Below, one piece after another: positions 11,809 to 54,596 of a stretch of DNA of 59,859 bases. The notes under the pieces were generated by a model that saw nothing but the letters and a program-made list of their open reading frames with translations, was not told the DNA's origin and ran no database searches. The stretch lies in assembly GCA_036788695.1 (NCBI GenBank), contig DAIQMY010000001.1, forward strand, positions 1 through 59,859. The letters are read 5' to 3'. The DNA is from Candidatus Levyibacteriota bacterium. GTDB taxonomy: Bacteria > Patescibacteriota > Microgenomatia > Levybacterales > GWA1-39-11. The position numbers and the translations under genes were made by a program. How positions within the stretch are numbered: position 1 is the first letter of the stretch; each line of letters starts with the position of its first letter.

Positions 11809-13040
11809 CTAGACTTTTTCACTTTCCCCCGTAAGAATACAGTAACTCCCAGGGCAAAAAAATAATATGATAGAAGAAACGGAATAGATATAGTTGAAAA
11901 TTCAAAAAGAGGAAATGATCCAAAAAAGCCGGTAATCATTTCAAAATATAAAAGAAGAGGATAAGAAATATAGAGGACTGGAACTGATACAATAGGTAAA
12001 GTAATAGCACAAACTGCTGCAATTCCCCCTAAAATCATAAGAAACGGAATTGTCCAAAGTACAAGAGCGTTCGCAAGTATAGAAACGAAAGAGTACGAAC
12101 CAAATACCCCTGCCATAACAGGCAAGCTTCCTATTTGGGACGCAATAGAAGTTGTAATATCATCTGAAAATATTTTTGTATTTTTAAATCTCCACAGTGA
12201 ATCGAATAATGGTTTACAGAAAACAATCCCAAGAGTTGAAGTAAAAGAAAGCAAAAATCCAACATCAAAAATTATCTCCGGTTGAACAAAAAGCATAAGC
12301 CAGGCGGTTATACAAAGAGCAAAAATGCCTGAATTTTGCCTCCCAAGTATTCCTGCGCTAAATGCTACACTTGCCATAACGCTTGCCCTCACAATAGAAG
12401 GAGAAAAGCCAGATAACAAAGCGTAGTAAAAAACCCCAAATATCGCGATTACTAATGCTTGCCTTCTCATAAGAAAACGTGAAAATAACGCTATCAGAAA
12501 GGATGCAACCATAGTAACATTCATTCCAGATGCAGCAACCACATGCAAAACTCCTGCATTTTTAAATGAAGACTTTGTATCTGATGTGAAGTCCTGACTC
12601 CCCCCAAAAACAATTCCAAATAAAAGCGCTGCCTCATTTTGAGGCAAATAGGAAAAGAATGTTTTAGAAATTCGTGTTCGTATGTATGACGCAGTTCTAA
12701 AAAATATGTTTGTGCTCTTTGTGCTCTTTATGACCGGGTTATGAATAACTAGATAGCTTACTACTTTCTTATTCTTTGCTTCAAATGATTCCTTATCAAC
12801 TATACCCTCTATATATATTTCGTCACCGTAGTGGACTTCATTCTCTTGTGGTATACGAATTTGAACTGATGAGACAGAAAAGGTCTTGACAAATTTATTA
12901 TTCTTCGGCTCTGAAAGAAGGGTAATTTTTTCTTGTAATGTGTCCCCGGGTAAATACTTTTTTTCATACGTAAAAAAGAATGCATACCTAATCCCCAAAG
13001 TTAAAAGGAGCACTATACAAATCAGGATAATGAATTTCAT
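11805..13040 (-). CDS. comEC: ComEC/Rec2 competence membrane protein
   Basis: GVLHVVAASGMNV, SIVRASVM, GFLLSF; lacks a fused MBL domain. Confidence 0.92.
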   Translation of the reverse strand: MKFIILICIVLLLTLGIRYAFFFTYEKKYLPGDTLQEKITLLSEPKNNKFVKTFSVSSVQIRIPQENEVHYGDEIYIEGIVDKESFEAKNKKVVSYLVIHNPVIKSTKSTNIFFRTASYIRTRISKTFFSYLPQNEAALLFGIVFGGSQDFTSDTKSSFKNAGVLHVVAASGMNVTMVASFLIALFSRFLMRRQALVIAIFGVFYYALLSGFSPSIVRASVMASVAFSAGILGRQNSGIFALCITAWLMLFVQPEIIFDVGFLLSFTSTLGIVFCKPLFDSLWRFKNTKIFSDDITTSIASQIGSLPVMAGVFGSYSFVSILANALVLWTIPFLMILGGIAAVCAITLPIVSVPVLYISYPLLLYFEMITGFFGSFPLFEFSTISIPFLLSYYFFALGVTVFLRGKVKKSR

Positions 13041-13046
13041 AAATAC

Positions 13047-13673
13047 TCATGGGCTGATCAGATCTTTTATTTTTGAAAATGTAGCAGCGCCTACTATTTT
13101 TTTTGAAAGCAATTCATCAACAGATGCGTATGGTCTTCCTCCAATTATTTTCTGAGCAGTAACGGAACCTACCCCAGGAAGTGACTCTAGCTCAGATTGA
13201 GATGAGGCGTTAATGCTAACTAAGCTACTGCTTGTTTTATCCATGAAAACTTGCGTATTTGATTGAGGAATTTGAGTTTCTCCTGCTTTAGGAATATATA
13301 TCTTTGCCTCGTCTTTTACTATTGCAGCAAGATTAATAGATTTTGAGACATACTCATAGTCTGCTAGGGTGGTTATTCCTCCGGCGGCATCTAAGGCATC
13401 TTGGATACGGGAACTACTTTTTAATCGGTAAACGCCAGGATTTACTACCTCTCCTGAAACATCTACCATAATTTCTGTTTCTTTTTTTTCAGTTGATAAT
13501 CCTTTTACCTCCTCCTCTGATTTAAATTCTATCTTACCACTCGGACTTAAAAGAAATTGGATCAAACCAATACTTAAGAATATCAAACCACCGGCTACCA
13601 AAGCTGAGAAAAGTAAATTTTGCCGTATTAAGATTAGGACGCTTTCACCTATTGAATTTGTTTCTTTATCCAC
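13047..13673 (-). CDS. comEA: ComEA DNA-binding protein (SLBB + HhH)
   Basis: VDVSGEVVNPGVY, INASSQSELESLPGVGSVTAQKII. Confidence 0.93.
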   Translation of the reverse strand: MDKETNSIGESVLILIRQNLLFSALVAGGLIFLSIGLIQFLLSPSGKIEFKSEEEVKGLSTEKKETEIMVDVSGEVVNPGVYRLKSSSRIQDALDAAGGITTLADYEYVSKSINLAAIVKDEAKIYIPKAGETQIPQSNTQVFMDKTSSSLVSINASSQSELESLPGVGSVTAQKIIGGRPYASVDELLSKKIVGAATFSKIKDLISP

Positions 13674-13740: not shown

Positions 13741-16700
13741 CTAGATTACGAAGTTTATAATTTTGAGAGGTATATAAATAGTTTTTTTAATTTCAGCTTC
13801 CGAAAGATACTTATCTACCTCTATCCGTGCTTGGTTTTCTAAATAGGTACGATCAGGCATTGGTTCCTCAACTTTTATTACCATTTCACCTCGTTTTTTC
13901 CCGTTTACTTGGATTACTATAGTTATCTGCTCTGAGGCAAGATACTTTTCATCCCACTCTGGCCACCCTGACAGATGAATTGAATCTTTTTGACTTAACA
14001 CACTATGCCACAACTCATCAGTCATAAACGGTGCAAACGGTGCAAGCAGCTTTAAAAATACTTCTGCCTCTTGTCTTGAAACCTCTTTATGGCTAGATAA
14101 AAAATTGTACCACTCCATAAGCCCTGCAATTGCAGTGTTATATTTAAATTCTGATATATCCTGCGTTACTCTCTTTATAGTCTTATGCATCATCCCTAAA
14201 CCTTCATCTGAAAGCTTAAAATCAGTAACAATTGAAAACTTCTTCCATACTCGTCTGATAAACCGATTCATACCCTCAATTCCTGAATCTCTGAAATCTC
14301 CGCCATCTGAGAAGGGACCTAAAAACATTAAGTATGCTCGAAGCGTATCAGCTCCATATTTCAGAATATATTCATCAGGCACCACTACGTTCCCTTTTGA
14401 TTTGCTCATTTTCGCTCCATCCTTAATAATAAGCCCATGAGCAAAAAAACTTTCAAAAGGTTCTTCAAAATCCACAAATTTTAAATCGTACAGTACCATC
14501 GATATAAATCGACTATATAAAAGGTGTAGCACTGAATGCTCTGCTCCGCCAATATACTTTTTAACAGGAAGCCAACGTTTTTGGATGGTTTTATCCCATG
14601 GAGTAAAATCTTTTTGATCTATTTTGATACCTCTGGATATACTTTTTGCATTTTTGTTATCACCAGTTATGAGAGGGTCTGAGATATAACCCAAGAAATA
14701 CCATGCACTATCCAGAAAAGTATCAGACACATCTGTTTCACGCTTTGCCTTACCATTACAGGAAGGGCAACTCGTTTCATAAAATTCAGGATGATTCGCA
14801 AGAGGAGAAAGCCCAGTACCCATTGGCTTCCAATCATCTACGTCAGGAAGTGCTATGGGTAAATCCTCAAGTGGCGCGGAAAACCATCCAGGCATTTCAA
14901 TTTTTTCCCCTTTACCAGATTTTTTACATGATTCACAAAATATCATAGGAATTGGTGGACCCCAATATCTCTGTCTTGAAATAAGCCAGTCACGTAAATG
15001 GTACTGAACCTTCTTTTGACCAATACCAGCTTCTATTAATTTGTTTACTACAGTATTCATGCCCTCAGCCACTTGCAACCCATTCCAAGCGCCAGAGTTA
15101 ATTAGCTTTCCTTCTCCCACATAAGCTCCCAGTTCAAGATTTGAATCTTTTGCTGTTATAACTTCTCTTATAGGAAGCTTGTGTTTTTTTGCAAAATCAT
15201 AATCTCTTTGATCATGTGCAGGAACTGCCATAATCGCACCTGTCCCATACCCCATGAGTACATAGTCTGCTACCCAGACTGGAATTTTCTCGTTATTTAT
15301 AGGATTTATCACATACTGACCTGAGAAAACACCTGTCTTTTCCTTTTCATCAGCAGTCCTTTCATTTTCTGACTTATTGTGTGCCCTTTTTACATATTCT
15401 GATACTTTATTCTCCACTCCCTCTCTGAGAAGTGAAGAGACAAATGGGTGCTCGGGAGATACGACAAGGAATGTTGCACCAAATAAAGTATCCGGACGAG
15501 TTGTAAAGACTTCAATTGAAGGAAGAAGGTGTTTTACTATTTCCGGTTCTGTCTCACCGGATAGATGATCTCCCTGTGCTACTACTTCAATAATCTTCCC
15601 GCCTATCTTTTCTCTTATAAAGTCCGCCCTTCCACCCGGAACGGCTGTATCATTAAGTGCTTTGAGTAATATAACTTCCCCCGCATTCTTTTTTATTTTT
15701 TCAAAATCAAACTTCCAATCAAATGTTTCCTCAAATGGTCTTTTATGATCCAGGAAGCCTGGCTCGGCAAAACCTGCTGCAAGCACTAAGCCACGAATGG
15801 GAACATCTAATCTTTCTACTACTTTTAAGGCAATAACTGATCCCAAGCTGTGACCAAATAAAATTGTATCTGCATCAAAAGAGTAATTATCTATAACATA
15901 CTGTACCTGCTCATCAACTGTTGGATTTTCTGTTTTTGGGAGGTTTGGAACCATTACAGTATGTCCCTTTTTCTCCAACTCAGCCTTAAGCCAAGGATGG
16001 AAGTTAGATGTAGAATCAGCGCCAAAACCATGAAGGTTGATAAATCGGTACTTTTTATCTATTGGGAACTCTATCACTGCACCAGTCTTTCTGCCAATCC
16101 AGTTACGTTGGGAAATTTTCACCTTCTCAGTCCAATCTAATGTCTCAATATTCTGAAGAAGTCTTTCCGCATAATCTGTAATTTTAAAAAACCATTGTTC
16201 TAAGTCTTTTTTTTCAACTACAGAAGAACAACGTTCGCATTTCCCATCAATTACCTGCTCGTCAGACAATACCGTCTTGCAGGATGGGCACCAATTCACT
16301 TCTGCTTTCTTACGGTATGCCAAGCCTGCTTGAAACAATTTTATAAATAACCACTGTGTCCATCTATAATATAAAGGATCATATGTCTCCAAGGTCCTAC
16401 TCCAGTCAAATGAGTTGCCAATACTCCTTAACTGTCTGTAATAGTTCTCCTGAGAAAGCTTTGCTTGATCTTTGGGGTGACGCCCCACCTTGAGGGCATA
16501 GTTTTCTGAATGAATCCCAAATCCGTCTAAACCGATTGGCTCAAAAACGTCACTCCCCTTCATTCTATTAAACCGAGCGTATACATCAGCACCCGTAAAG
16601 GCATACATATTCCCCACATGAAGCCCTTCCGCAGAAGGGTAAGGGAACATCATTAAGTTAAAATAAGGTTTACTAGCGTTGAGTAAATCAGGCGTAAATG

Positions 16701-16770
16701 TTTTATCACTCTCCCATTTACTCTGCCATTTAGCCTCGATTTCCTGATGATTATAGGATAAATCCTTCAT
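13741..16770 (-). CDS. leuS: leucine--tRNA ligase with inserted alpha/beta hydrolase domain
   Basis: MFPYPSAEGLHVGN, FTTRPDTLFG, GTGAIMAVPAHDQRD, KMSKS; insert at about 15520-16053 contains GHSLG. Confidence 0.97.
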   Translation of the reverse strand: MKDLSYNHQEIEAKWQSKWESDKTFTPDLLNASKPYFNLMMFPYPSAEGLHVGNMYAFTGADVYARFNRMKGSDVFEPIGLDGFGIHSENYALKVGRHPKDQAKLSQENYYRQLRSIGNSFDWSRTLETYDPLYYRWTQWLFIKLFQAGLAYRKKAEVNWCPSCKTVLSDEQVIDGKCERCSSVVEKKDLEQWFFKITDYAERLLQNIETLDWTEKVKISQRNWIGRKTGAVIEFPIDKKYRFINLHGFGADSTSNFHPWLKAELEKKGHTVMVPNLPKTENPTVDEQVQYVIDNYSFDADTILFGHSLGSVIALKVVERLDVPIRGLVLAAGFAEPGFLDHKRPFEETFDWKFDFEKIKKNAGEVILLKALNDTAVPGGRADFIREKIGGKIIEVVAQGDHLSGETEPEIVKHLLPSIEVFTTRPDTLFGATFLVVSPEHPFVSSLLREGVENKVSEYVKRAHNKSENERTADEKEKTGVFSGQYVINPINNEKIPVWVADYVLMGYGTGAIMAVPAHDQRDYDFAKKHKLPIREVITAKDSNLELGAYVGEGKLINSGAWNGLQVAEGMNTVVNKLIEAGIGQKKVQYHLRDWLISRQRYWGPPIPMIFCESCKKSGKGEKIEMPGWFSAPLEDLPIALPDVDDWKPMGTGLSPLANHPEFYETSCPSCNGKAKRETDVSDTFLDSAWYFLGYISDPLITGDNKNAKSISRGIKIDQKDFTPWDKTIQKRWLPVKKYIGGAEHSVLHLLYSRFISMVLYDLKFVDFEEPFESFFAHGLIIKDGAKMSKSKGNVVVPDEYILKYGADTLRAYLMFLGPFSDGGDFRDSGIEGMNRFIRRVWKKFSIVTDFKLSDEGLGMMHKTIKRVTQDISEFKYNTAIAGLMEWYNFLSSHKEVSRQEAEVFLKLLAPFAPFMTDELWHSVLSQKDSIHLSGWPEWDEKYLASEQITIVIQVNGKKRGEMVIKVEEPMPDRTYLENQARIEVDKYLSEAEIKKTIYIPLKIINFVI

Positions 16771-16864
16771 AGATATTTTCAAGTATAGCATGCCTGCATT
16801 TATTTCTAAATACCTAAAGGGTAATTTGCTTGCAGATTTATCTTTTTGTGAATATAATTTATAT

Positions 16865-19915: not shown

Positions 19916-22900
19916 ATGAACATAGAACAACTTATTGGACAGTACAAAACTTATCTTTTAAGTAATCACTCTAAGATTACTGCGAAGAACTATGTTTCAG
20001 ACATTAATCACTTTGTTACGTGGTTTGCTAACAATTACAATACAGTGTTTTGTGCTGATTTATTAACATTAAATATCATTACTGCCTATAAGGAGCACAT
20101 TCAATCACAGTCAAACTCGCCAGAACACCAATATAGCTATAAGTCGGCAAGCAGGCACCTTTCAAGTCTCAGATCTTTTACTTCATACCTAGTATACGCA
20201 GAACTTATTCCCGAAAACCCATTCAAGGTACAGGCAGAAAATCAATCGGCTTCAGATCCATGGAGCTTAAAGGGATTTAAAAACTTTCTATACTCACAAC
20301 GCTCAAGTGATCTAACTGTAAAATACTATATCAATGATATACAAGGGTTCAGCAAGTGGTATGAAGAAACTGTTGGCAGCATAAAAACAGAAAACACACC
20401 AAATCTTAACGCTGAAATTTTCACTGAGTACTCAAGAAGACTTAACACCACACTTCTTCTTTCTCCAAGGACCGTAAACAGAAAACTCTCAAGCCTTAGA
20501 CGATATACCTCATATCTTCATTTACAAAACAGGATAGATGAAAAGATTACAGTCCCATCCCAAGTAAGTCCAGAAAGTACTGTTACTTTAAACGATATGG
20601 TAGTTCATACACCAACAGAACAATACTCTAAAATACCACCTGTGAGACTGGCACAAAGAATAACCCGACCATATCTCAAACTTGAAAACGCAGCAGCTGA
20701 CCTGATATCAGCTCAGATAATTAAAACAAAGTTGAGAAAAGCGTTTGAGAAAAATGGAATAAATAAAAAACAACCGCTAGATAGCATATTGCAGGGACTA
20801 AGCAATAATAATATAAAAAAGGAATTCTATGCCCCCTATAGCATCTCTACTCAAGAGTTTTCATTAAGAAAAAAAGCATATCATCATCTAAAACACACAA
20901 GGCCTGAATGGTATAAAAAGTATCATACCTATCCATTTGTCCATTATCTACATCTTGGAATACTAGTAGTGGCAGCTGTCTCCTCTGCTTTTTATCTTTA
21001 TTACAATACCATAGGGAATGCTAACGCAACAAATACACAAGCAAAAAAGATAATGCAAAAAACATTTGCGTTCAAAGGGAAACTTTTAGATAAAAATAAC
21101 AAACCCATTACCCAAGTAACAGACTTGAGACTTGGACTCTATACAAATCCTACTGCTAGCGGGAGTGCGCTTGCATGGCAAGAAGTTCAAACTGGAATAA
21201 AACCTGATGAGAATGGGAATATAAGCATTATCATAGGAAACAGAAATGAATTACCGCAACCTCTTATAGACTCTAATACTCCTCTCTACCTTGGGGTAAC
21301 TGTTGGTACAGATTCTGAGCTGGCACCTCGTCAACAAATTGGGACATCTTTCGCAAACACAGCAAACAGTGTACAAGGATTATTGCCGATTACAAATGCA
21401 AATAGACAGACAAACGTACTTCTGGCACTAGATGCAAGCGGGGTACTTTCTATTGGAGGTAGCGCAAATCCAATTTTTACGGCAAGCGGCGGTCAGTTTA
21501 CCTTATCAGGAAATACTATCCTACTTACCACAAACCCTGGGAGCAACGGAAATATTATTATAAATCCTTCAGAGAATGGAAAAATTGATCTTCAAAAACC
21601 GCTTATTAACAGCCAGGGAGAAATTCTTGCAGAAGGTGGACTCATTATTCATGCAACAACAAGCGCAAAATCAGCACTTACAATACAACAAGACATGGGA
21701 GGACCATTTATTACAGCCTCAACCTCTGGTCAAACCAGATTTCAAGTTGATAGCCAAGGAACAATTACTCATGGTAATTGGGCGGGAAACCCCATAAGTC
21801 CTGAATTTGGAGGATTCGGTGCAAATATAACTCCTGCAACACCCGGGGAAATACTCTATTCAATAAACACAACATCCTATGGTCATCTACGACCAGGAAC
21901 AGCCGGTCAGTGTCTTACGACAAATGGATATGCCGCACCACTTTGGAGCTCCTGCGGATTTCTTTCTCAGCTAAATGGTGCATTAACGCTTACTAATAAT
22001 ACGTTTGATATAGTTTTAGGCGGAAATTCAACTGATAGTGCAAAGTTTGTTTTTTCAAATATGAGCACCGGAACACCGCTTCTCAAAATTGGAAAGTCAC
22101 TTCTCCTAGGAGGGAACACTCTCTACACAAACGGAGAAGACTTAAGGCTTGGAACAGGTGAAACAAAAAATATACTCCTTGCCCAGGCAGGAAATGTGGG
22201 AATAAACTCCTCATCACCTACCCGCACGTTAGATGTAAATGGAACATGGGGAGGAAACGTTGACTTTTACAGTGATGGGGAAGGAAGTAGAACTATTACA
22301 AGAGACACAAAAGCTCTTATCTATGACCTTGAGAAAAGTACAGGAAGTTATAATCTGGACTCAGAAACTACATACAATATAACAGCACTACCAAATACTG
22401 AAGGAACTTTTGCCTATATATATACAAAGGTGGAAAAAGGAGCAACCTCTGACCCTGTAACACAAAAAATTTTCATACAGGTAAATGGAACACAAGTAGG
22501 TTTAGTGTCAACGAACAACACAACAAATTCTTATAAAAGCATAGAACACTACACGCTTACAAGAAGTAACAATACATGGCACCTCTTAGGAGATACCGGA
22601 ACAACAAATGACGCAGCAGATCTTGCTGAATGGACTAAATATGAAGGGAAGCATCCTCTATCAGGAAATTTAGTTAGTATAGGAATAAATGGAAAACTAG
22701 TACTATCACGTATTCCTTATGATTCAAAAATTGCAGGAGTTGTTTCAACAAAGCCTCATATAACAATAGGAGCACAGTATAAGGATACCACTCCGCTTGC
22801 GCTCTCAGGAAGAATACCTGCAATTGTTATGTCATTTAACGGTTCCATATCCGCGGGAGAGACAATCACATCCTCTCCAATTCCCGGAGTAGGAATGAGG

Positions 22901-24541
22901 ATGAAAAAATCAGGAGCTACCGTTGGAAAAACACTTGAACCATTTATTCCTGATACTTCTTGTAAAACAGTTGCCTCCCTTGAAAGTATCAAATGGCCAG
23001 ATGATGATGGGAAGAACACAAGCCGTCCATGCTTTAAGGTACCAGTTTCATCATTTGACTCGCTCACAATGACTTATCTAGCACAGTATGGGCTTTCTTA
23101 TGTAGACTACTTATATATAGGTAAAGTTATGATCCTTTCAAATCTCTCATGGTCAAATAATGAGGATCTTATTGCATCAGTTAATTCCGCAACCATAGCT
23201 GATAATACTATGCCCATTTCCGCGCTTGATCCATCCCTTGCAGCAACCATGGAAACACTTAACGCATCTACTCCAAGCGTTTTTGTTTCCGGTGAGGCTT
23301 TTCAAAATGTGGCTGCATTCTCAGGGGTTATTGCAGGGAAAATAAAAGCAGGAATTATCACGGCACAATATATTGCATCGGAAAATATTGCGGCGTCATA
23401 TGCCAAAATAACAAATCTTAGTGTTCAGAATAGCATCACAGCTGCAACAATCACATCTCCTCTTATTGAAGGAGATAGTGTAAAAACAAATTCTATTAGC
23501 CCAAGAAATACCACGGATCTTGCAATAAAACTTCCTACAAAAAACTCAAAAGTAAAAATACAAGATCAATCAGGAGAAACTGTTTCTGAAATAGATGCAA
23601 GCGGAAACGCATCGTTTTCAGGAACTATTAACTCGCAGGCACTTAACACAGATGGTGCGACCATCTCAGGAACACTACGAACACAAAATTTAATTGCAGA
23701 TAATATCGAAGGTCTTTCTGATACTGTCGCAAGCATTACTTCAAAAATTGTGAATAATTTAAAACCTGTAGAAAACAAGCAGTTGCCTCATTTATCTGAA
23801 ACACTTGCGCAGTCATCAGTCTCTGCACAATTTGGAACATTCTACCAGGGACTTTTATCCTTAGGCGCATCTACATTCGGAGATTTATCTGTTATGGATC
23901 AGCTATCAATTGGAACTACCTTTATATTCTCAGGAAACTCAATAAATACCCTTGGCACAGACCTTGCAATACAACCACTTAAACAAGGCGCAGTATCATT
24001 TCTTGCAGGAGCGGTACGCATAGAAGCGGATGGACAACTGTTTGTAAATGAGAATGCGATATTCAATAAAAATCTAAGCGTTAGAGGAAAACTCATGACA
24101 AATATTATATCTCCTCTTCCCGACTCAGACCTATCATTACAGCTACCTTCTGGAGGTCAAAAGGATGCAAAACTAGTAGTTAAAAATGCAAGCAACTCAG
24201 CGGTGCTCAGTATATCTTCGCGGGGAGATATTCACGCATCAGGATCTGCCACAATATCAAAGCTTAACTTTAATATTGTAGGACAAGCACTTGCCTCAGG
24301 CGAATATACCGCTAGCGCAAGTTCTTCTGCAGGAACTGCCATTATTAAAGCGGGTACAAATGAACTTACTATACTAAATCCTCTTGTAACACGCGATTCT
24401 CTTATTTATATTACGCCTGCACAAAACACAAATAATAATGTTCTTTATCTCATGCGGCAATCAGCAGGGGAAAGTTTTACCGTTGGGATATCTCAAGTTG
24501 TTCAATCTGATACGTTATTCAATTGGCTTATTGTAAATTAA
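19916..24541 (+). CDS. giant membrane protein: two integrase N-terminal core-binding domains, TM helix, fibre-like ectodomain
   Basis: TAKNYVSDINHF/SASRHLSSLRSF and TVKYYINDIQGF/TVNRKLSSLRRY; TM at about aa 345-365; AADLAE...GVVSTKP...ALSGR chaperone-like segment; no R-H-R-Y catalytic set recognised. Confidence 0.85.
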   Translation: MNIEQLIGQYKTYLLSNHSKITAKNYVSDINHFVTWFANNYNTVFCADLLTLNIITAYKEHIQSQSNSPEHQYSYKSASRHLSSLRSFTSYLVYAELIPENPFKVQAENQSASDPWSLKGFKNFLYSQRSSDLTVKYYINDIQGFSKWYEETVGSIKTENTPNLNAEIFTEYSRRLNTTLLLSPRTVNRKLSSLRRYTSYLHLQNRIDEKITVPSQVSPESTVTLNDMVVHTPTEQYSKIPPVRLAQRITRPYLKLENAAADLISAQIIKTKLRKAFEKNGINKKQPLDSILQGLSNNNIKKEFYAPYSISTQEFSLRKKAYHHLKHTRPEWYKKYHTYPFVHYLHLGILVVAAVSSAFYLYYNTIGNANATNTQAKKIMQKTFAFKGKLLDKNNKPITQVTDLRLGLYTNPTASGSALAWQEVQTGIKPDENGNISIIIGNRNELPQPLIDSNTPLYLGVTVGTDSELAPRQQIGTSFANTANSVQGLLPITNANRQTNVLLALDASGVLSIGGSANPIFTASGGQFTLSGNTILLTTNPGSNGNIIINPSENGKIDLQKPLINSQGEILAEGGLIIHATTSAKSALTIQQDMGGPFITASTSGQTRFQVDSQGTITHGNWAGNPISPEFGGFGANITPATPGEILYSINTTSYGHLRPGTAGQCLTTNGYAAPLWSSCGFLSQLNGALTLTNNTFDIVLGGNSTDSAKFVFSNMSTGTPLLKIGKSLLLGGNTLYTNGEDLRLGTGETKNILLAQAGNVGINSSSPTRTLDVNGTWGGNVDFYSDGEGSRTITRDTKALIYDLEKSTGSYNLDSETTYNITALPNTEGTFAYIYTKVEKGATSDPVTQKIFIQVNGTQVGLVSTNNTTNSYKSIEHYTLTRSNNTWHLLGDTGTTNDAADLAEWTKYEGKHPLSGNLVSIGINGKLVLSRIPYDSKIAGVVSTKPHITIGAQYKDTTPLALSGRIPAIVMSFNGSISAGETITSSPIPGVGMRMKKSGATVGKTLEPFIPDTSCKTVASLESIKWPDDDGKNTSRPCFKVPVSSFDSLTMTYLAQYGLSYVDYLYIGKVMILSNLSWSNNEDLIASVNSATIADNTMPISALDPSLAATMETLNASTPSVFVSGEAFQNVAAFSGVIAGKIKAGIITAQYIASENIAASYAKITNLSVQNSITAATITSPLIEGDSVKTNSISPRNTTDLAIKLPTKNSKVKIQDQSGETVSEIDASGNASFSGTINSQALNTDGATISGTLRTQNLIADNIEGLSDTVASITSKIVNNLKPVENKQLPHLSETLAQSSVSAQFGTFYQGLLSLGASTFGDLSVMDQLSIGTTFIFSGNSINTLGTDLAIQPLKQGAVSFLAGAVRIEADGQLFVNENAIFNKNLSVRGKLMTNIISPLPDSDLSLQLPSGGQKDAKLVVKNASNSAVLSISSRGDIHASGSATISKLNFNIVGQALASGEYTASASSSAGTAIIKAGTNELTILNPLVTRDSLIYITPAQNTNNNVLYLMRQSAGESFTVGISQVVQSDTLFNWLIVN

Positions 24542-26851: not shown

Positions 26852-27991
26852 ATGAAAAGGCTGTTCTCTTTCCTATCTTTTAAACAACTTAAAAAAACCG
26901 CTCGATTTTTAGCTCTTGAGTTAAGAGCATTTCTTATTTTCTTTAAAATCTATATACAAGATAAGCTTATCTCTGCTTCTTCTGCTTTTGAAACACGTAA
27001 GAATGCAATGGTTAAAGGCGTACTGATTAAAAGAGGTAAAAAAAACCGATTCTTTCTTCACCTCTCAATCATGGTCATCTTAACAATTGGTGTACTTATT
27101 TCCCCCTTCATATCTGAGGCACAACTATTTGGTAAAAATAAGGATTTACTCTCTTTCGCCCAGGAACAGGGTCCTGCTTCATTATCTCTTACACAAGACA
27201 ACGTATTTCAAACACAAAATACCGTAGGAATTCGCGATAAAGTAGTTAAATACTCAGTTCAAAAGGGAGATACCATATCCACCATAGCCAAGAAATATGG
27301 AGTTACTGAAGACACTATAAAATGGCAAAATGATCTATCTTCAGATGATATTTCAATAGGTCAGGAGATTGAGATACTTCCGGTTACTGGAATTGCGCAT
27401 AAAGTCGCAAGTGGAGATACGGTATATACTATTGCAAAGAAATATGGAGTCGACGCCCAGGCTGTAGTAGACTTCCCCTTTAATGACTTTGCGAACCCAC
27501 AAACATTTTCACTTGTAACAGGACAAATTGTTATTGTGCCTGATGGGGTTAAACCAGAAGAACAGGCTCAGCCTCAGTATGTACGTCAAACATTCATAGC
27601 TAGCGGTCCGGTGTCAGTCACGGCATCTGGCTTTACATGGCCAATACATGGATCTCTCAATCAGTCATTCTCCTGGTATCACCCTGGTGTTGATCTAGGC
27701 GCGTCAGTAGGTACACCCATTATTGCAGCACAAAATGGTACGGTATCCCAATCTTACTCTGGCGGGTGGAATTTTGGGTATGGAACACATATTGTCATAT
27801 CAGGAGATAATGGATATACAACTCTCTATGCCCATATGTCAGCATTGAATGTTTCTGCAGGAGACAGAGTTGTCGCAGGAAAAACCGTAGTAGGCTGGGT
27901 AGGACTTACGGGACGCACTACAGGAGCACATCTCCACTTTGAAATTAGATCAAATGGTGGAAACTTAAACCCGCTTGGGTTCCTACAATAA
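26852..27991 (+). CDS. LysM x2 + M23 peptidase
   Basis: YSVQKGDTISTIAKKYGV and HKVASGDTVYTIAKKYGV; HPGVD, YAHMS, HLHFE. Confidence 0.95.
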   Translation: MKRLFSFLSFKQLKKTARFLALELRAFLIFFKIYIQDKLISASSAFETRKNAMVKGVLIKRGKKNRFFLHLSIMVILTIGVLISPFISEAQLFGKNKDLLSFAQEQGPASLSLTQDNVFQTQNTVGIRDKVVKYSVQKGDTISTIAKKYGVTEDTIKWQNDLSSDDISIGQEIEILPVTGIAHKVASGDTVYTIAKKYGVDAQAVVDFPFNDFANPQTFSLVTGQIVIVPDGVKPEEQAQPQYVRQTFIASGPVSVTASGFTWPIHGSLNQSFSWYHPGVDLGASVGTPIIAAQNGTVSQSYSGGWNFGYGTHIVISGDNGYTTLYAHMSALNVSAGDRVVAGKTVVGWVGLTGRTTGAHLHFEIRSNGGNLNPLGFLQ

Positions 27992-28021
27992 GCACTACTT
28001 TTGGATATACGCTGCAAGAAT

Positions 28022-28536
28022 TTAGCCTAAGGTTAATAAAAACTCATTGTTATCTGAAAGAAACGATGAAACCCTAGTCTTTTCCGAGGTTTAGTAAGAA
28101 CACATTGTTATCTGGAGCGTAGCGGAAGAAACGATGATACCCTACCTAATCTTTGCCTAAATTCAATAAAAACTCATCGTTATCTGAAAGAAACGATGAA
28201 ACCCTAGTCTTTTCCGAGGTTTAATAAGAACACATTGTTATCCGAAGGAAAGGATGAAAACCTAATCTTTGCCTAAATTAAGTAAAAATTCATCGTTATC
28301 CGAAGGAAAGGATGATTACCCTAGTCTTTTCCGAGGTTTAATAGAAATTCATCGTTATCTGAAAGAAACGATGATACTCTAAGAAGTTTAATAAAAATTC
28401 ATCGTTATCCGAAGGAAAGGATGATTACCCTAGTCTTTTCCGAGGTTTAATAGAAATTCATTGTTATCTGGAGCGTAGCGGAAGAAACGATGAAACCCTA
28501 GTCTTTTCCGAGGTTTAATAAGAATTCATCGTTATC
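28022..28536 (-). repeat. tandem array of rho 3'-end copies with hairpin spacers (gene tail plus 8 copies)
   Basis: Units at 28022-28054, 28074-28112, 28146-28184, 28204-28242, 28262-28300, 28321-28359, 28379-28409, 28430-28468 and the gene tail 28498-28536; spacers 19-33 nt. Confidence 0.97.
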
Positions 28537-29805
28537 CTCAGTCTTACTTAATCGTTCTATAAGCACTTCTGCTCGTTCGTCTGGACTCAAAACATCAATC
28601 ATGCGTCTCATCATTACAACCTTTTTCAGCTTATCTTCAGGCATTAAAAGCTCTTCTTGGCGTGTGCCTGACTTCTCTACGTTAATAGCTGGAAATACGC
28701 GTCTTTCAGCAAGTCTTCTGTCTAAATGAAGCTCCATGTTTCCCGTACCCTTAAACTCCTCAAAAACTAAATCATCTAATCTGGAACCTGTGTCTACCAG
28801 TGCCGTACCTATTATAGTAAGGGATCCTCCATCTTCACAATTTCTAGCAGCCCCAAAGAACCGTTTTGTTGGATAAAGAGCAGCAGGATCATATCCTCCT
28901 GAAAGTGTGCGTCCGGATGGCTCAATTGACAAATTATATGCGCGAGCAAGCCTGGTAATTGAGTCTAGAAGAATAACCACGTGCTTACCATTCTCAACTA
29001 ATCTCTTTGCCCGATCTAGGGCAATCTCCGCAACTCTTGTCTGAATTTCAGGTGATTCATCAAAATTTGAGGCTACTACATCACCTTTGACGGAACGTGC
29101 GATATCTGTTACCTCTTCAGGGCGCTCTCCTATTAAGACCGCCATTAAATGAACGTCTGGGAAATTAGCGATAATACCTGAGGCTATATCCTTCAAAATA
29201 GTGGTTTTTCCAGCCTTAGGAGGTGATACAATCATACCTCTCTGTCCAAATCCAATAGGCGCGACTAAATCAATAATACGTGTTGAGAGTGGATATTTTT
29301 TAGTTGATAACTTGATCTGTGTATTTGGGTAGATAGGTGTTAAATCCTCAAAATAAGGTCTTTTTGTAGACTTATCTGCATCTACTCCGTTTACTCTGTT
29401 GATTTTCAATAATCCATAATACCGCTCGTTGTCTTTTGGTGGACGCCCTAAGCCCTCAACTAAATCCCCCGGTCTGAGCCAAAAACGACGAATTTGTGAA
29501 GATGATATATAGATATCATGATCTGATGGTCTGAATTTTGGCCTCAAAAAACCATGCCCTTCATGTTGAATATCTAAAATTCCGGAAACCACTTCTGTGC
29601 CTTCATCTCTATCCTGCGCACTCATATTGTTCTCACGGACGAAACCTTGATTTCTATCTTCAATTACTGGTTCTTCTCTGGGTGAAACTTGAGCTTGATC
29701 CATATTCCCTGACACTACACCTTCTGTGCCTGTATCCTGAGGAGCTGAGCCTATTGGGGCATCATTAGATGCTAATTTTCTAGTTGTTCGTTTTGTGTAT
29801 GGCAT
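28498..29805 (-). CDS. rho: transcription termination factor Rho
   Basis: GILDI...[47 protein letters not shown]. Confidence 0.98.
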
Positions 29806-31696: not shown

Positions 31697-31883
31697 GGAG
31701 GGAATCCATGAGAAGTCGGGCACCACCACCGCCTAATTCACAACGAGATAGCGAAAGCTAAGCTCAAAAGACAATGCCAGAGGTATTCAACCCTCAATAC
31801 AAGCGGCTAGTCTTCTAAGCGGAAATATGACAGTGGAGGAAACTCTACGTGTCACCAAGATCGATCAAGGAGTGATCACTACC

Positions 31884-32951
31884 ATGCACAAGCTCATGAG
31901 GAGCCTTTGCGCGACCGCAAGTCTCGCATTCGTGGCTCTGGCCATGCTCGCTTGCGGCGGCGGAATCAGCGAATCGGATCTGAACAAGACCCTTGACGCT
32001 CGTGACGCCACTAAGGCCGCTGCGAACCTCCCGGACATCACAAGCAACCCCGCGGTTGCCAAGATCGTCCAGGATTACCAGACAGGCACAATCAAGACAT
32101 CGGACGCTGCAAAGGCACAGATCAAGGCTCTCGGTTACACCGATGACCAGGTCGAAGCTGCCTTCCGCACCGCTCTGAACGTCATTGTGCCGACCCCCAC
32201 CACTCCTGAAAAGGGTGGAACGCCAACCAATCCGACGACCACGACCGCGCCTACCCAGACTGCTAACAGTCTCAAGGGCACTGGCACCAAGCCAACGTTC
32301 GTGACCAACTTCGAGCAGGGTGCATGGAAAGTGTCTGGAACTGACAGGCTCAAGGAAAACCCCATCGTTGATGGCTGGATCCACCGCCTTCAGAACCCGG
32401 CACCTCGTCTGTGGAAAACCTACCCGAACATCCCTAACCCGGATGTCCCGGAATTCCGCGTTGTCAACGGCACGCAAGTTCCTGATGGCGTCGAGTACGG
32501 CACCTACAGTTCGCCTTACTGCTTCGCTCACCCGTGCGACGTCCCCGTGGGAGCTTGGGAATACCGGCTCATCACTGGCGACTACCACGTCATGGGGTAC
32601 GAATGCAAGGGCGACATGAAGAAAGGATGTCTCATCCTTCTCATCAATGTCATGGCCCAGTCGGTCACGTTCAGAGATCAGGATATCGACAACGGATTCA
32701 CAGTCCGAGGTCGCTACTGGAACGGGGACGCACTCGAATGGGGAACCTGGGGACTCGTTAGCCACGCATCAGCGAACATGCTGAACATGCCTACCTTCGC
32801 ACGCGAAGGCGAGGTTCTGAACGCTGGTGATCCCGGCAATAGCGGCGCCAACTGCGGTACCCCCAACGGGTGCGGCACTGTTGACGCTCGCGTCATCGTG
32901 GTTGCTGGCGACGCAGTTATCGCGGTCCTCGAGACCACGGTCACCCGCTAA
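31884..32951 (+). CDS. predicted lipoprotein, Cys-rich, Thr/Pro linker (island)
   Basis: AAGGAG RBS; signal with lipobox-like MLA-C; PTPTT linker; paired Cys motifs; GC-rich codons. Confidence 0.8.
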   Translation: MHKLMRSLCATASLAFVALAMLACGGGISESDLNKTLDARDATKAAANLPDITSNPAVAKIVQDYQTGTIKTSDAAKAQIKALGYTDDQVEAAFRTALNVIVPTPTTPEKGGTPTNPTTTTAPTQTANSLKGTGTKPTFVTNFEQGAWKVSGTDRLKENPIVDGWIHRLQNPAPRLWKTYPNIPNPDVPEFRVVNGTQVPDGVEYGTYSSPYCFAHPCDVPVGAWEYRLITGDYHVMGYECKGDMKKGCLILLINVMAQSVTFRDQDIDNGFTVRGRYWNGDALEWGTWGLVSHASANMLNMPTFAREGEVLNAGDPGNSGANCGTPNGCGTVDARVIVVAGDAVIAVLETTVTR

Positions 32952-33643: not shown

Positions 33644-36600
33644 ATGCAAAGATTAACAGTCCTCATATTTCCATTTCTTCTCCTACTTATTACTGTAACA
33701 ATATGCCTTCTCAACTATGTACCGGGAACTTTTCTTACAGGTTGGGATACGCTTCATCCTGAGTTTAATTTTCCACAACAATTTTCAAATATATTTTTTG
33801 GAGTCTTCAGAAGTGACCAGGGACTAGGGGCAGTAGCTGCTCATTCACACATGGCTGAATTACCGCGTGTTATATTCTTATGGCTTGAACATTTTGTGCT
33901 TCCCCTCTCATTTCTGAGATATTCATATATTTTTCTTTGTTTTATATTGGGTCCATTAGGAGTTTACTTCTTTATACGCTTTGCTCTTTTAGCAGATCGG
34001 CATAGTGCAAAAAAACAATTAGCTTCATCTGCATCATTTTTAGGAGCCTTGGTTTACATATGCAATTTAGTTGTTGTTCAGCAGTTTTACGTTCCTTTTG
34101 AAATGTTTACCACACAGTACGCATTTTTAGGTTGGATTTTCTTAACAAGTGCTAGGTATGTAAAAAAGCCAACCGTGCTAGGTCTTTTTATTTTCTCTCT
34201 TATTGTGTTTTTGTCAGCTCCGCAAGCATACGCCGCTGTTTTATGGTATGCGTTTTTTCTGTGTTTTTTTCTTTTCCTTGCAGTAAATACTCTTCTTATA
34301 AGAAAAAAGCAGGTTGTTGTGTCCTCTTTAATCTTAATTATTACTACGCTTACTATAAACTCGTTTTGGCTTCTTCCAAATCTATACTTTCTACAAGGAA
34401 GCGCGAAAGATATTTCACTTGCACAAACTAATAAAATCTTTTCCGATGAAGCATTTTTACATAACAAGCAGTATGGAAATATTATTGATACAGCACTTCT
34501 TAAAAACTTTCTTTTTAATTGGACTGAACAAATAAGCGTTATTAACTCGAAAGATCTTATGTCAACCTGGAAATCTCATCTATCACTCCCGGGAGTTACA
34601 GCTATTGGATATATTGTTTTTATTATAAGCATTATAGGTATTATTTTCTCAATTATTAGAAGAAGATTTCTTGCCTTGTCTTGCCTTCCTATATTTCTAG
34701 TTTCAATCATTATGATTGTAAACATGAATCCTCCATTTGAGGCAATATTTATTTATTTAAGAGACACCTTCCCACTTTTCAAGGAAGGATTACGATTCCC
34801 TTTTACTAAATTTTCAATACTACTTATCTTTGCTATAAGCGTATTTACTTCTATTTCTTTTTTAGAATTATTTAATCTTATAACTAAGATTAAAAAACAT
34901 TATCTATCACGCTTTATGCATATTTCACTTTTAGCCTTATTTACATCCTCTTTGCTCTATTTTGCGGCACCCATGTTTTATGGTCATCTCATTGATCCGA
35001 GAATGAAAGTATCAATACCAAAGGAATACTTTGAATTTTTCAGATATATGCAAAAACAACCAACAGATGCACGAATTGCCCCATTACCAGTTCAATCATT
35101 ATGGGGATGGGATTACTACAACTGGGAAGACGAACAAAAATCTAAAAAAAGCGGTTCAGGATACCAAGGAGCAGGATTTATATGGTTTGGAGTAAATCAA
35201 CCAGTGTTATCAAGAGATTTTGACAGATGGAATATAAATAATGAACAGTATTATAGAGAAATTTCTGGAGCAATATACTCAAGAGATCCGTTAAAAATTG
35301 AGGCATTGGTAAAGAAGTACAGAATAAAATACTTCTTACTCGACCAAAGCATTGCAATAGTGGGCAATAAACAAAACGCACTATGGCACTATGAAACAAA
35401 AGAAATTTTTAAGCAATTAAGAAATATAACACTTACACGTACTTTTGGAAATAATTTATCTTTGTATGAAGTTGATGGATCATTAGTTCCATTAAGTTTT
35501 GTGCAAGCACCGCATTTTATAACATCAGTGGGACCACAAATTACTGGAGGATTCATGGATCTTGCTTCTGATAAATTGGGAGATTACTATTATGCCCCAA
35601 CTCCTGACTACTTTTATCCCTCAAGAAACCTCGTTGATAGATATGACCGTATTCCTGAGTCTGTTATTGCGCAGAGTTCAAATTCGGCATTATTACAACT
35701 TACTACTATTCCACCTGACTATAAATTTACTACGTCTTGGCTAGATAATGACATCTTCCCTGAATTCATGAAAAAATATAACTACAATCTCTCAACGGAA
35801 GAAGGTAATCTGCCATCTCTCATTGATCAAAAACCATTCATCTCTGTTTCCGTTGCATCGGAATCACAAAAAATGGTAAATAAAATCAATCAGGCAAATG
35901 ACTGCGGGAATACGACAGAAACAACAAATACAGCAATAAAAAACCTGAATGGTTTTTTCAGGTTTACTGCGCAAAATGGAGCGAGTTGTGGATTTATTTC
36001 TTTTCCATATATAAAACAAGATTTTGGAAATCTACTGAGCCTTGAGGCAAAAAATATACAAGGACTTCCAACTAGATTATGTATCACTAATAAATTATCA
36101 AGACGGTGCAATATATATACATCTCTTGATCATGGAAAAGATTGGAAAAAATATTTTTTTCTTATCCCACCTGAACCATCTGGAGATGAGGGATATGAAA
36201 TCCATTTCAATACGTTATCCATTGGAAATGATAAGAGCATAAATGATATTAGAAACGTAACATTACATTCAATTCCTTATTACAGATTAGAAAATATATA
36301 TTTCACAAAAACAGGTAAAGACACTCCTCGCTATACAAATGGGGTAAAAATTATAAATAGTACTCAAAAAAACCCAACTCTTTACACTGCAAAAATTCAG
36401 CAGATAAATAAAAATCGGGGTCTCTTAACCCTTTTTAAGTCATATGATAATGGATGGCATGCTTATACCACACAAAACAAAAATATTTTCACAGAATTCT
36501 TTCCTTTTCTTTTGGGAAAAGAAATTAAACAACATGTACGCATAAACAATTGGGCGAATGGATGGATGCTCGAACCTAATACAAAGGACCAGAAGTCGGA

Positions 36601-36718
36601 AATTATCATAGTGTTCTTGCCCCAATATTTGGAATATACGGGGTTTGTATTATTGGGCGGGTATTTTACCGTGTTTGCTGCTATTGCTGTTAAAAAACGT
36701 ATTAAGGGGTCAAATTAG
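33644..36718 (+). CDS. large GT-C-like membrane glycosyltransferase (AftD/YfhO-like)
   Basis: GWDTLHPE N-terminal motif, many TMs, LRFPFTKF, extracytoplasmic domain, C-terminal H...NNWANGW. Confidence 0.7.
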   Translation: MQRLTVLIFPFLLLLITVTICLLNYVPGTFLTGWDTLHPEFNFPQQFSNIFFGVFRSDQGLGAVAAHSHMAELPRVIFLWLEHFVLPLSFLRYSYIFLCFILGPLGVYFFIRFALLADRHSAKKQLASSASFLGALVYICNLVVVQQFYVPFEMFTTQYAFLGWIFLTSARYVKKPTVLGLFIFSLIVFLSAPQAYAAVLWYAFFLCFFLFLAVNTLLIRKKQVVVSSLILIITTLTINSFWLLPNLYFLQGSAKDISLAQTNKIFSDEAFLHNKQYGNIIDTALLKNFLFNWTEQISVINSKDLMSTWKSHLSLPGVTAIGYIVFIISIIGIIFSIIRRRFLALSCLPIFLVSIIMIVNMNPPFEAIFIYLRDTFPLFKEGLRFPFTKFSILLIFAISVFTSISFLELFNLITKIKKHYLSRFMHISLLALFTSSLLYFAAPMFYGHLIDPRMKVSIPKEYFEFFRYMQKQPTDARIAPLPVQSLWGWDYYNWEDEQKSKKSGSGYQGAGFIWFGVNQPVLSRDFDRWNINNEQYYREISGAIYSRDPLKIEALVKKYRIKYFLLDQSIAIVGNKQNALWHYETKEIFKQLRNITLTRTFGNNLSLYEVDGSLVPLSFVQAPHFITSVGPQITGGFMDLASDKLGDYYYAPTPDYFYPSRNLVDRYDRIPESVIAQSSNSALLQLTTIPPDYKFTTSWLDNDIFPEFMKKYNYNLSTEEGNLPSLIDQKPFISVSVASESQKMVNKINQANDCGNTTETTNTAIKNLNGFFRFTAQNGASCGFISFPYIKQDFGNLLSLEAKNIQGLPTRLCITNKLSRRCNIYTSLDHGKDWKKYFFLIPPEPSGDEGYEIHFNTLSIGNDKSINDIRNVTLHSIPYYRLENIYFTKTGKDTPRYTNGVKIINSTQKNPTLYTAKIQQINKNRGLLTLFKSYDNGWHAYTTQNKNIFTEFFPFLLGKEIKQHVRINNWANGWMLEPNTKDQKSEIIIVFLPQYLEYTGFVLLGGYFTVFAAIAVKKRIKGSN

Positions 36719-38538: not shown

Positions 38539-39903
38539 CTACAATAAAGATACTATTCCAGAAATCGTAGGAGACGACTCCCATGTAATCAGTTTAAACT
38601 TAAATTTTTTTGCTTCCTGCTCTCTTTTCTTTAAACTTACTACTTTCTTTAGCTCTCCCAGAAGTCCTACTTCTGCAACTGCTGCTGTCTTTACAAGTGG
38701 CTTACCTTTAAAAGAACTCATAATTGCTAAGCATACAGCCAAGTCTGAGGCAGTTTCCGTAATTTTAAATCCACCGACAACGTTCACAAAAATATCAAAT
38801 TTTTCCAACGGCAATTTAGCGTGCTTTTGTAGTATTGCCAAAAGCAGCTCTAATCTCTTTTCTGAAATGCCGCTTGCAATACGCCTAGGATATGGAAGAT
38901 TTGAGTGAATCGTAAGCGCCTGAATTTCAACTAATATTGGGCGCGACCCTTCCATCATCACCGCAACACATGATCCAGGAGATGACGCTTCAGAGCCCAG
39001 AAAAAGATCAGATAGATCAGTTACCTCCTGTAAACCATATTCTTGCATCCCAAATATTCCTACCTCTGATGTATCCCCAAATCTATTTTTAAAAGCACGC
39101 AGAATTCTAACTCCTGTCATTTTCTCCCCCTCTAAATATAGTACCGTATCCACCATATGTGAGAGCATCATGGGGCCTGCCACCATACCCTCTTTTGTAA
39201 CATGTCCAATAATAATTACAGGGGTATTTGTACTTTTTGCAAAAGACACGAGCCTTCCAGTCGCGTGCCTCACTTGCGGGATTGAGCCAGCGTAACCTGG
39301 GAGATTTGCACTTTCCATTGTCTGAATAGAATCAATAATAACTAAGTCATATGTGGCTTCTTCTGCTTGATATAGGCAGGTATCTATATTTGAGGATGCA
39401 AGAATAAAGAGATTATAGTCTTCAAGTTTTTTTTCTTTTAATAAACGCTTTGCGCGCAAAGTTACCTGCGCCTCTGACTCCTCGCCTGTTACATAGAGCA
39501 CCTTACGATTACCCTTACCGAACCCGCTCTCTTTCCCCCGAGCTAGATTAAGCGCGGTCTGCAGTAAAAGCGTAGATTTACCAACTCCAGGATCACCTGA
39601 GAGTAAGATTACTGAACCAGGAACTATCCCTGCCACAGTTTCCTGCCCTAACACACGATCAAATTCAGAAAATCCTGTAGAAAAACGGGCAACTGAACTT
39701 ATCTTTACTTCAGATACTTTGGTTGGCTTGCTCTCAATTGATAAAACGTTTTGATTTTTTATCCCTTTATTAGTCTTTCCTCCTGGAATACTAAACTCCT
39801 TCATCGTATTCCACTCAGCACATTCAGGGCATTTTCCATACCATTTTTGCGAATCATAACCACAGCTGCTACATACAAATGAAATTGTTGGATTTTTAGG
39901 CAT
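38539..39903 (-). CDS. radA: DNA repair protein RadA/Sms
   Basis: CSSCG...WYGKCPEC zinc finger, GDPGVGKST, KNRFG. Confidence 0.97.
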   Translation of the reverse strand: MPKNPTISFVCSSCGYDSQKWYGKCPECAEWNTMKEFSIPGGKTNKGIKNQNVLSIESKPTKVSEVKISSVARFSTGFSEFDRVLGQETVAGIVPGSVILLSGDPGVGKSTLLLQTALNLARGKESGFGKGNRKVLYVTGEESEAQVTLRAKRLLKEKKLEDYNLFILASSNIDTCLYQAEEATYDLVIIDSIQTMESANLPGYAGSIPQVRHATGRLVSFAKSTNTPVIIIGHVTKEGMVAGPMMLSHMVDTVLYLEGEKMTGVRILRAFKNRFGDTSEVGIFGMQEYGLQEVTDLSDLFLGSEASSPGSCVAVMMEGSRPILVEIQALTIHSNLPYPRRIASGISEKRLELLLAILQKHAKLPLEKFDIFVNVVGGFKITETASDLAVCLAIMSSFKGKPLVKTAAVAEVGLLGELKKVVSLKKREQEAKKFKFKLITWESSPTISGIVSLL

Positions 39904-54459: not shown

Positions 54460-54596
54460 TTTTGCCCCTCAGTCGCGGGTTCTTGACCTTAAATTTTCGT
54501 TGGAAAATCGCAGGGCAAGCGTTAAAAGTAAAATATACTTTACGTAAAACTTAGGTTATTAAAACTGTTTTGCCCCTCAGTCCTTGGCCTTGACCT
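54460..54596 (-). repeat. partial duplication of the 5S rRNA 3' end and flank
   Basis: TTTTGCCCCTCAGTC at 54460-54474 and 54568-54582; CTTGACCT at 54482-54489 and 54589-54596. Confidence 0.7.

Follow-up and report, generated by a model that had tools for sequence, protein, structure and literature searches.

The window, a 59,859-nt stretch of DNA from a Candidatus Levyibacteriota bacterium, carries rho, the gene for transcription termination factor Rho, followed by a tandem array of copies of the rho 3' end. We propose that this array is probably a hypervariable minisatellite whose repeating unit holds the true end of rho, and that it arose as a by-product of recombination. Nine units are present in total, namely the tail of rho itself (U0) and eight downstream copies (U1 to U8) of its final 12 codons plus the stop. 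The array takes up the 506-nt gap that separates the end of rho from that of a convergent LysM/M23 peptidase gene, and all intact units encode an identical 12-residue peptide. The features of the locus are as follows.

28498–29805, minus strand: rho, transcription termination factor Rho, 435 aa, with Pfam domains Rho_RNA_bind and ATP-synt_ab
28498–28536, minus strand: unit 0, the in-gene 12-residue tail plus TAG, class C (..AAC CTC GGA AAA GAC TAG)
28469–28497, minus strand: spacer 0, long class (GGTTTCATCGTTTCTTCCGCTACGCTCCA), predicted to pair with unit 0 and the upstream GAGGA in a stem of 14 bp that surrounds the stop codon (-17.4 kcal/mol, z = -2.1)
28410–28468, minus strand: unit 1, class C with a D-to-N change, plus a short-B spacer (GGTAATCATCCTTTCCTTCG)
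28360–28409, minus strand: unit 2, truncated (DNDEFLLNF..) with a 9-nt internal deletion and lacking an in-frame stop where one would normally stand, plus a short-A spacer
28301–28359, minus strand: unit 3, intact, class C, plus a short-B spacer
28243–28300, minus strand: unit 4, intact, class T (AAT TTA GGC AAA GAT TAG), with 8 synonymous differences from unit 0, plus a short-B' spacer
28185–28242, minus strand: unit 5, class C with D-to-N and E-to-V changes, plus a short-A spacer
28113–28184, minus strand: unit 6, intact, class T, with 8 synonymous differences from unit 0, plus a long spacer (33 nt)
28055–28112, minus strand: unit 7, class C, plus a short-A spacer
28022–28054, minus strand: unit 8, decayed terminal unit (DNNEFLLTLG*)
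26852–27991, plus strand: convergent neighbour, the LysM/M23 peptidase gene, with the same synteny in the related loci L003, L005 and L011
29934–29962, minus strand: promoter-like site 5' of rho, TTGACA-17-TACAAT, matching 11 of 12 consensus positions (not functional evidence)

The array is arranged head to tail, and its unit size lies within the range of minisatellites (about 10–100 bp). Tandem Repeats Finder (TRF) reports a period of 58 with 6.4 copies (score 365) at 28165–28537, and the monomers starting with U0 to U7 measure 68, 59, 50, 59, 58, 58, 72 and 58 nt, respectively. A degenerate pattern of the tail has 7 matches in the window against 0 expected. The first-pass annotation, made from the DNA letters alone, had listed an array of eight rho tails on the minus strand; the peptides re-read unit by unit agree with that list. 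All units open with GATAACGATGA, as does the tail of rho itself, which gives the silent copies and the expressed gene a common upstream homology.

The spacers between the units are 19–33 nt long and contain no gene. They fall into three classes (long, short-A and short-B), in which the long class equals a short spacer with a 10-nt insert; the recurrence of three classes, already described in the first pass, is real. Each spacer carries TCATC(G/C)TT, complementary to AAC(G/A)ATGA of the flanking units. The earlier suggestion that spacers pair with their adjacent units is confirmed: an inverted repeat is found at every junction, but the pairing is imperfect, covering 6–9 of 9 positions per junction.

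Units diverge at synonymous sites

U4 (28300–28262) and U6 (28184–28146) are each separated from U0 by 8 changes in 39 nt, none of which alters an amino acid, exactly as first described. Random simulation did not reproduce this all-synonymous pattern: the peptide was retained in 0 of 200,000 simulations of 8 random substitutions, and with 6 substitutions it was retained at a frequency of 1e-5. Synonymous changes make up 19 of the 117 possible single changes to U0 and 15 of its 39 transitions, and a transitions-only null gives a probability of about (15/39)^8 = 5e-4 for 8 synonymous changes. In L020, a more distant species with an array of its own, U0 and U2 are separated by 6 synonymous changes and 1 non-synonymous change. 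Additionally, the in-gene tail of clade I has 7 nucleotide spellings and 1 peptide.

The tail belongs to the conserved Rho C-terminus (..T-x-N-x-EFL-x-x-L), and the alignment of the encoded Rho to solved Rho structures reaches residue 432 of 435. As a conserved structural element of Rho, the tail is expected to be under strong purifying selection in the expressed unit. On units outside the gene, selection appears to be relaxed, as judged from the state of the copies. Only 9 of the 16 non-terminal silent units are intact, and the damage in the others includes D-to-N and E-to-V changes, one truncation and one lost stop; the terminal, most distal unit is decayed in every array, and a homologue of the decayed terminal unit of the window is also present in L003, L011 and L013. 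The two deep classes would differ only synonymously because unit lineages have repeatedly been exposed to protein-level selection on the conserved tail.

The in-gene unit is exchanged between close strains

The first-pass annotation had proposed that the recoded tails were once translated rho ends under purifying selection, and a search of relatives for the recoded variant as a working rho end was positive. Specifically, the TTA GG(T/C) AAA GAT class forms the in-gene end of rho in L003 and L004 (Rho 99% identical) and also in L005, L006 and L009, so that the recoded tails are, or recently were, rho ends translated under purifying selection. In L003, TTA GGT AAA GAT stands in the gene and the CTC GGA AAA GAC class of the window lies downstream. 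The rho bodies of the window and L003 are 97.4% identical (99% for the Rho protein), with 33 differences in the 1269-nt body and 0 in the 62 nt before unit position 15, followed by 7 differences in the last 25 nt of the tail (binomial P = 6e-5).

L005 and L007 provide a closer pair. Their rho bodies are identical over 1272 of 1272 nt, and their tails differ at 6 of 39 positions; L007 corresponds to L005 minus its first 59-nt monomer, an in-register deletion. Since this swap took place without one substitution in 1272 nt, the cycling of units would be much faster than point mutation. Both the L005-type and the L007-type haplotype were found again in independent samples, and each of the two in-gene variants of the P0002 lineage was seen in three samples or more. 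Between the window and L011, the rho body is only 84% identical, yet 38 of 39 nt of the tail are alike. Taken together, these comparisons establish that the recoded tails are real rho gene ends and that they swap at the level of the unit.

Distribution and variation of the array among relatives

The nearest named Rho homologues come from Candidatus Levybacteria / Levyibacteriota, a phylum of the candidate phyla radiation (CPR). The rho 3' flank was obtained for 15 lineages or haplotypes, and arrays are present in four species-level lineages, all within one small clade:

Group 1, the species of the window: the window, L001 and L003 (= GCA_964419005)
Group 2, 86% rho nucleotide identity: L005 (= L026 = GCA_964394645), L006, L007 and L009
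Group 3, 84% rho nucleotide identity: L011 (= GCA_017992235), L021, L012, L013 and L014
Group 4, a more distant species: L020 (CAYOTA010000006), with 3 units derived from its own DNDEFLQNLGKD tail

The window has 9 units, L003 has 6, and L005 has 4 together with a partial one, as compared with 4 in L011 and 3 in L013. L021 (JAGORM010000003.1), a metagenome-assembled genome (MAG) separate from L011, has the identical four-unit array. Comparison of the array sequences reveals that haplotypes differ by in-register deletions and duplications of whole monomers and by chimeras or crossovers within units. For instance, L011 has two identical adjacent monomers of which L013 has one, and chimeric units or spacers occur in L009 and L012. 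A two-unit higher-order repeat is evident in L003, whose units run T, C, T, C, T and terminal, and in L005, where T with a short spacer and C with a long spacer occur twice in succession. The L005 array ends in an 8-nt partial unit (AATAACGA), followed by unique sequence. Both unit classes and all spacer classes are common to three species.

No tail copy, even a degenerate one, was found in nine array-free relatives (L015/L022, L030, L049, L050, L051, L052, L061, L062 and L063), in which the 3' gaps span 44–83 nt (L030 left out). Dehalococcoidia rho genes and 18 JGI metagenome contigs with similar peptides likewise carry single tails only. Peptide-level tail copies were found downstream of no other ORF, either in the window (ORFs of at least 80 aa) or, over 391 kb of related loci, in a set of about 1,180 ORFs. 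In a rough Rho tree, L020 groups with the array-free L051 and L030; therefore, there must have been either repeated losses of the array or more than one gain. In favour of a common origin of the arrays, the spacers of L020 are similar to the long class (CGCTTCGCTCA vs CGCTACGCTCCA).

The peptidase gene beside rho is inverted (convergent) in the window, L003, L005, L011 and L050, and co-directional with rho in L015, L020, L049, L051, L052 and L063. A tie between the array and this inversion was considered and found not to be strict, as L050 has the convergent arrangement but no array, and L020 carries an array beside a co-directional peptidase gene. In the array-free L063, a 124-aa gene of the 23S_rRNA_IVP family (PF05635) lies between rho and the peptidase gene (2554–2928, minus strand).

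Probable shuffling within the array rather than a stack of imported tails

The first-pass annotation had further suggested that the recoded tails came from other strains and that the array is an ordered record of tail replacements. On this account, a tail acquired from a different strain or species, for example through transformation and homology-facilitated illegitimate recombination, would become the new gene end and push the old one downstream, and the array would be a chronological stack. Several observations fit. Spellings like those of class C and class T are the ordinary in-gene tails of array-free relatives (L050 ..AAACCTCGGAAAAGACTAG and L015 ..AATTTAGGCAAGGACTAG), and U1 of L020 matches the in-gene tail of its sister species L051 at 28 of 31 nt. 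The most distal unit is decayed in every array, and in L020 it adjoins sequence homologous to the native 3' flank of the sisters. Additionally, the window genome encodes ComEC, ComEA and RadA, and these genes make DNA uptake by the organism probable, a point that bears on an exchange of array units between strains. The genes lie at 10957–13673 and 38539–39903, both on the minus strand, and comprise ComEC (a Competence domain and a separate metallo-beta-lactamase ORF), ComEA (SLBB and HHH) and a RadA-like ATPase.

Other observations weigh against it. No tract of divergence extends upstream of the swapped unit, although imported DNA usually carries flanking differences, and the similarity of L020 U1 to L051 is not significantly above the identity of the gene bodies. 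The same unit and spacer classes are found in three species, where they alternate as a higher-order repeat, and close strains are separated by simple in-register deletions or duplications. In particular, the order of units is scrambled between the window and L003, although the two are 97.4% identical in rho. Neither an origin in other strains nor an ordered record is therefore borne out, and we consider a stack of imports unlikely. The strain differences point to shuffling within the array, and import may have been the original source of the second unit class.

A proposed cycle of silent and expressed units

In the minisatellite that we propose, the basic period is 58–72 nt, often organised in two-unit higher-order repeats, and each monomer consists of 12 codons, a stop codon and a pyrimidine-rich spacer of 19–33 nt. 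Because every monomer has a complete tail and stop, any in-register exchange would leave rho intact; unequal crossover in register or replication slippage would thus change only which monomer is translated. Units would cycle between the expressed position and the silent positions downstream far faster than point mutations accumulate. Whenever a damaged unit entered the gene, selection would remove that genome; the differences between surviving unit lineages would thus be mostly synonymous. Copies left outside the gene would decay, most clearly at the distal edge.

As for its origin, the spacer is most likely the ancestral rho 3' untranslated region (UTR), made up of an arm complementary to the codons for N-D-E and a subsequent U/C-rich tract. 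The array may have been seeded by a microhomology-mediated tandem duplication, of which we read the 8-nt partial unit of L005 as the mark. What was amplified would then be the rho tail together with its 3'-UTR hairpin module, and by default we take the amplification itself to have little or no selected function.

Some observations weigh against this proposal. About 20 monomers, taken from three species, show no variation in the spacer cores TCATCCTTTCCTTCG and TTCCGCTACGCTCCA or in the first 11 nt of the unit, 3 synonymous sites included. In these species, 4-fold degenerate sites of rho differ by 34–38% and other intergenic regions are 67–88% identical. Unlike what is expected of a purely neutral minisatellite, the invariant cores point to constraint at the nucleotide level or to exchange between species. 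An array that contracts fast would be expected to collapse, yet this one has persisted in four species-level lineages. The 3' UTRs of L051 and L030, array-free sisters of L020, lack the spacers of L020, which makes a local UTR origin of the spacer less secure for that lineage. Selection through cycling is second-order, and its power to hold two classes free of non-synonymous change is a qualitative argument only. Finally, copy number and order read from short-read assemblies may be imperfect.

RNA structure and a possible cis-acting role

The conserved cores could alternatively mean that the array is a selected cis element, either tandem rho terminator or 3'-UTR modules that insulate the two convergent genes, or a proximal 3'-UTR switch that tunes Rho dosage. 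The first-pass annotation had likewise suggested a possible effect on Rho autoregulation or mRNA stability. The spacer cores and inverted-repeat arms are invariant between species despite the 4-fold divergence given above, and changes in the inverted repeats are compensatory in L020 (CGACGAG/CTCGTCG) and in U3 of L005 (AAGGATG/CATCCTT). The 14-bp stem predicted for the in-gene tail and the first spacer (-17.4 kcal/mol, z = -2.1) is joined by a 9-bp hairpin with a 10-nt loop at the short-A junction, followed by UUUUUAUU (-11.8 kcal/mol, z = -2.7). The spacers are 72% pyrimidine with a C/G ratio of 1.79, as compared with 0.78 in the rho coding sequence, and the persistence of the array in four species-level lineages would also be accounted for.

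On the other hand, the whole array on the rho-sense strand folds no better than shuffled sequences (z = -0.55), and neither do the short-B junctions (z = +0.25 and -0.37), which always contain a C-C mismatch. Units with AATGTG have no compensating spacer, a consensus scan of the array found no canonical intrinsic terminator, and Rfam 15 covariance models gave no match at E values up to 1 on either strand of 27700–28800. Moreover, nine close relatives live without any array, and the conserved blocks of 25–26 nt could equally be the identity tracts in which crossovers take place. On this mixed evidence, a selected cis element is a less likely explanation of the array, though a live one. Still less probable is a selected contingency device, in which recombination would heritably and reversibly switch the spacer class after the rho stop and the number of hairpin and pyrimidine-tract modules between rho and the convergent peptidase gene, thereby tuning Rho dosage or read-through, with the synonymous spare tails keeping the protein unchanged.

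Mobile elements, assembly artefacts and other repeat families

Duplication of the 3' end of the target gene is common among integrative elements, as established for tRNA and tmRNA targets. The units could accordingly be attachment-site scars from repeated integration and loss of a mobile element whose target is the 3' end of rho and whose own attachment site (attP) brings a replacement tail, and each junction indeed has a 9-8-9 inverted repeat, as in the core sites of tyrosine recombinases. Nevertheless, Pfam annotation of the ORFs in and around the arrays turned up neither an integrase or transposase nor other element DNA, and no reverse transcriptase was seen among the annotated ORFs nearby. 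The units lie only 19–33 nt apart, with three spacer classes used over and over. No tail copies were found in IMG/VR viral contigs, and the array has no match in phage and plasmid collections. Taken together, an origin of the units as integration scars is very unlikely.

Eight IMG/VR matches to the 21-nt spacer motif were dismissed, as they are no more numerous than the estimated chance level and stop short of the unit sequence. Three IMG/VR contigs (L053 5343–5363, L054 2652–2672 and L058 13641–13661) have long, near-perfect inverted repeats around the loop TTYCGCTTCGCTCMA; unlike the match count, these stems are not at the estimated chance level. The complement of TTYCGCTTCGCTCMA contains d(GCGAAGC), a stable mini-hairpin motif, and it is similar to the loop in the long spacer of the array (GCGTAGC).

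One ORF of the window was examined as a candidate integrase for the array:

19916–24541, plus strand: 1541-aa ORF with two tandem Xer-type core-binding (SAM-like) domains at residues ~12–105 and ~118–216

Its catalytic domain is absent, about 1300 residues have no family match, and no PDB sequence matches it. A 51%-identical homologue lies in the same neighbourhood of the array-free L030, and the C-terminus is also present in L021. The ORF was rejected as the integrase of the array, as it has core-binding domains only and stands equally beside the array-free L030.

Many short-read contigs end inside or at the array (L001, L002, L004, L007, L008 and L010), a sign of the difficulty that it poses to assemblers, which could suggest that the array or its polymorphism between strains is an assembly artefact. 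This is scarcely credible. L001 (ENA ERZ794922), an independent assembly with an identical Rho, reproduces the first 3.5 units of the window base for base before the contig ends; four NCBI MAGs have arrays, as do several ENA and Logan assemblies of separate samples; and the junction from gene to variant lies within about 30 nt of unique gene sequence. The recurrence across samples and assemblers excludes that the array stems from an artefact. The exact copy number in any single short-read assembly is uncertain, given the many contigs that break within the repeats.

Other candidates were also rejected. Read-through translation of the silent units is incompatible with monomer lengths that are not multiples of three and with a stop at the end of each unit; no ORF of at least 50 aa lies within the array on either strand, and a 63-aa ORF (27826–28017, minus strand) starts just past the last unit. 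A dispersed family of repetitive extragenic palindromes or bacterial interspersed mosaic elements (REP/BIME), miniature inverted-repeat transposable elements (MITE) or DNA uptake sequences is not supported, as no copies of the spacer motif exist elsewhere in the 59.9-kb window or in the 391 kb of related loci. The array is not a CRISPR array either, since its variable segments are mutually homologous rho tails and its conserved blocks come in three length classes; cas domains are not seen among the annotated ORFs. A replication origin or dif site was discarded in view of the monotonic cumulative GC skew across the window.

Comparison with known repeat systems

A literature search turned up no account of an array like this one, either at rho or in CPR genomes. 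The closest parallels are found among tandem repeats at gene boundaries. The MIRU-VNTR loci (interspersed tandem repeats whose copy number varies) of Mycobacterium tuberculosis, reportedly described by Supply and colleagues in 1997, are said to be intercistronic tandem units of 46–101 bp with short ORFs that overlap the flanking stop and start codons. Like the rho array, they have units of tens of bp at gene boundaries, copy numbers that vary between close strains, a presumed origin in slippage or unequal recombination, and edges more degenerate than the interior. In contrast, the rho unit holds 12 sense codons and the stop of an essential single-copy gene, its variants are deep and synonymous only, the expressed copy is exchanged between strains, and the array is confined to one locus.

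Silent gene ends that recombine with an expressed copy are known from other systems. Rhs and CdiA polymorphic toxins have displaced orphan C-terminal (CT) modules, with tips of hundreds of codons that encode different toxins, cognate immunity genes and diversifying selection. The rho array shares with them displaced or silent 3' ends directly downstream of a full-length gene that can recombine via shared upstream homology, but its tips have 12 codons and one peptide, with no immunity or partner gene and no functional diversification. In Neisseria pilE/pilS and Borrelia vlsE, non-reciprocal gene conversion generates amino-acid variation for immune evasion. There too, one expression site is accompanied by adjacent silent partial copies that recombine into the gene, whereas the exchanges at rho are protein-neutral and consistent with simple deletion or duplication.

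With integrase attachment sites, the array has in common a duplicated gene 3' end downstream of an intact gene and an inverted repeat at the junction; it differs in having no element or integrase, a spacing of 19–33 nt and up to nine copies. REP/BIME and CRISPR arrays resemble it in the alternation of conserved palindromic blocks with segments of about 30 nt, the period of 58–72 nt and the position between convergent genes. Distinct from these, the rho repeat is not dispersed, its segments are all homologous and continuous with the rho coding sequence, and cas or RAYT genes are not seen among the annotated ORFs of the locus. The locus represents an unusual repeat behaviour and not a new molecular machine or system.

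The array illustrates that silent DNA outside a gene can bear the purifying-selection signature of a protein, and that synonymous-only divergence in "intergenic" repeats need not imply hidden translation or horizontal import. In practical terms, the assemblies of these CPR bacteria systematically break at rho, and the array offers a very fast strain marker for Levybacteria populations. If the spacer or hairpin does control termination or Rho dosage, the locus would offer a rare example of a global transcription factor that is subject to repeat-mediated switching.

Other features of the window

An rRNA locus on the minus strand comprises 23S rRNA (54770–58129), 5S rRNA (54582–54699) and tRNA-Ala (58433–58505). 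The 23S match spans 3360 nt against a model of 2925 positions, which leaves about 430 extra nt as an insertion or intron; insertions and introns in rRNA are often reported for CPR bacteria. The leucyl-tRNA synthetase (1016 aa; 13741–16791, minus strand) has an Abhydrolase_1 match at residues 249–351, inside the catalytic domain region, and this segment may be an inserted domain. Two long ORFs overlap at 31827–32951 (plus strand) and 31845–32765 (minus strand), where the GC content is 0.49 as compared with about 0.37, and neither has a Pfam or NCBIfam match; the neighbouring 1024-aa ORF (33644–36718, plus strand) has no family match. The 374-aa gene of this stretch is conserved beside rho in L001 and L002.

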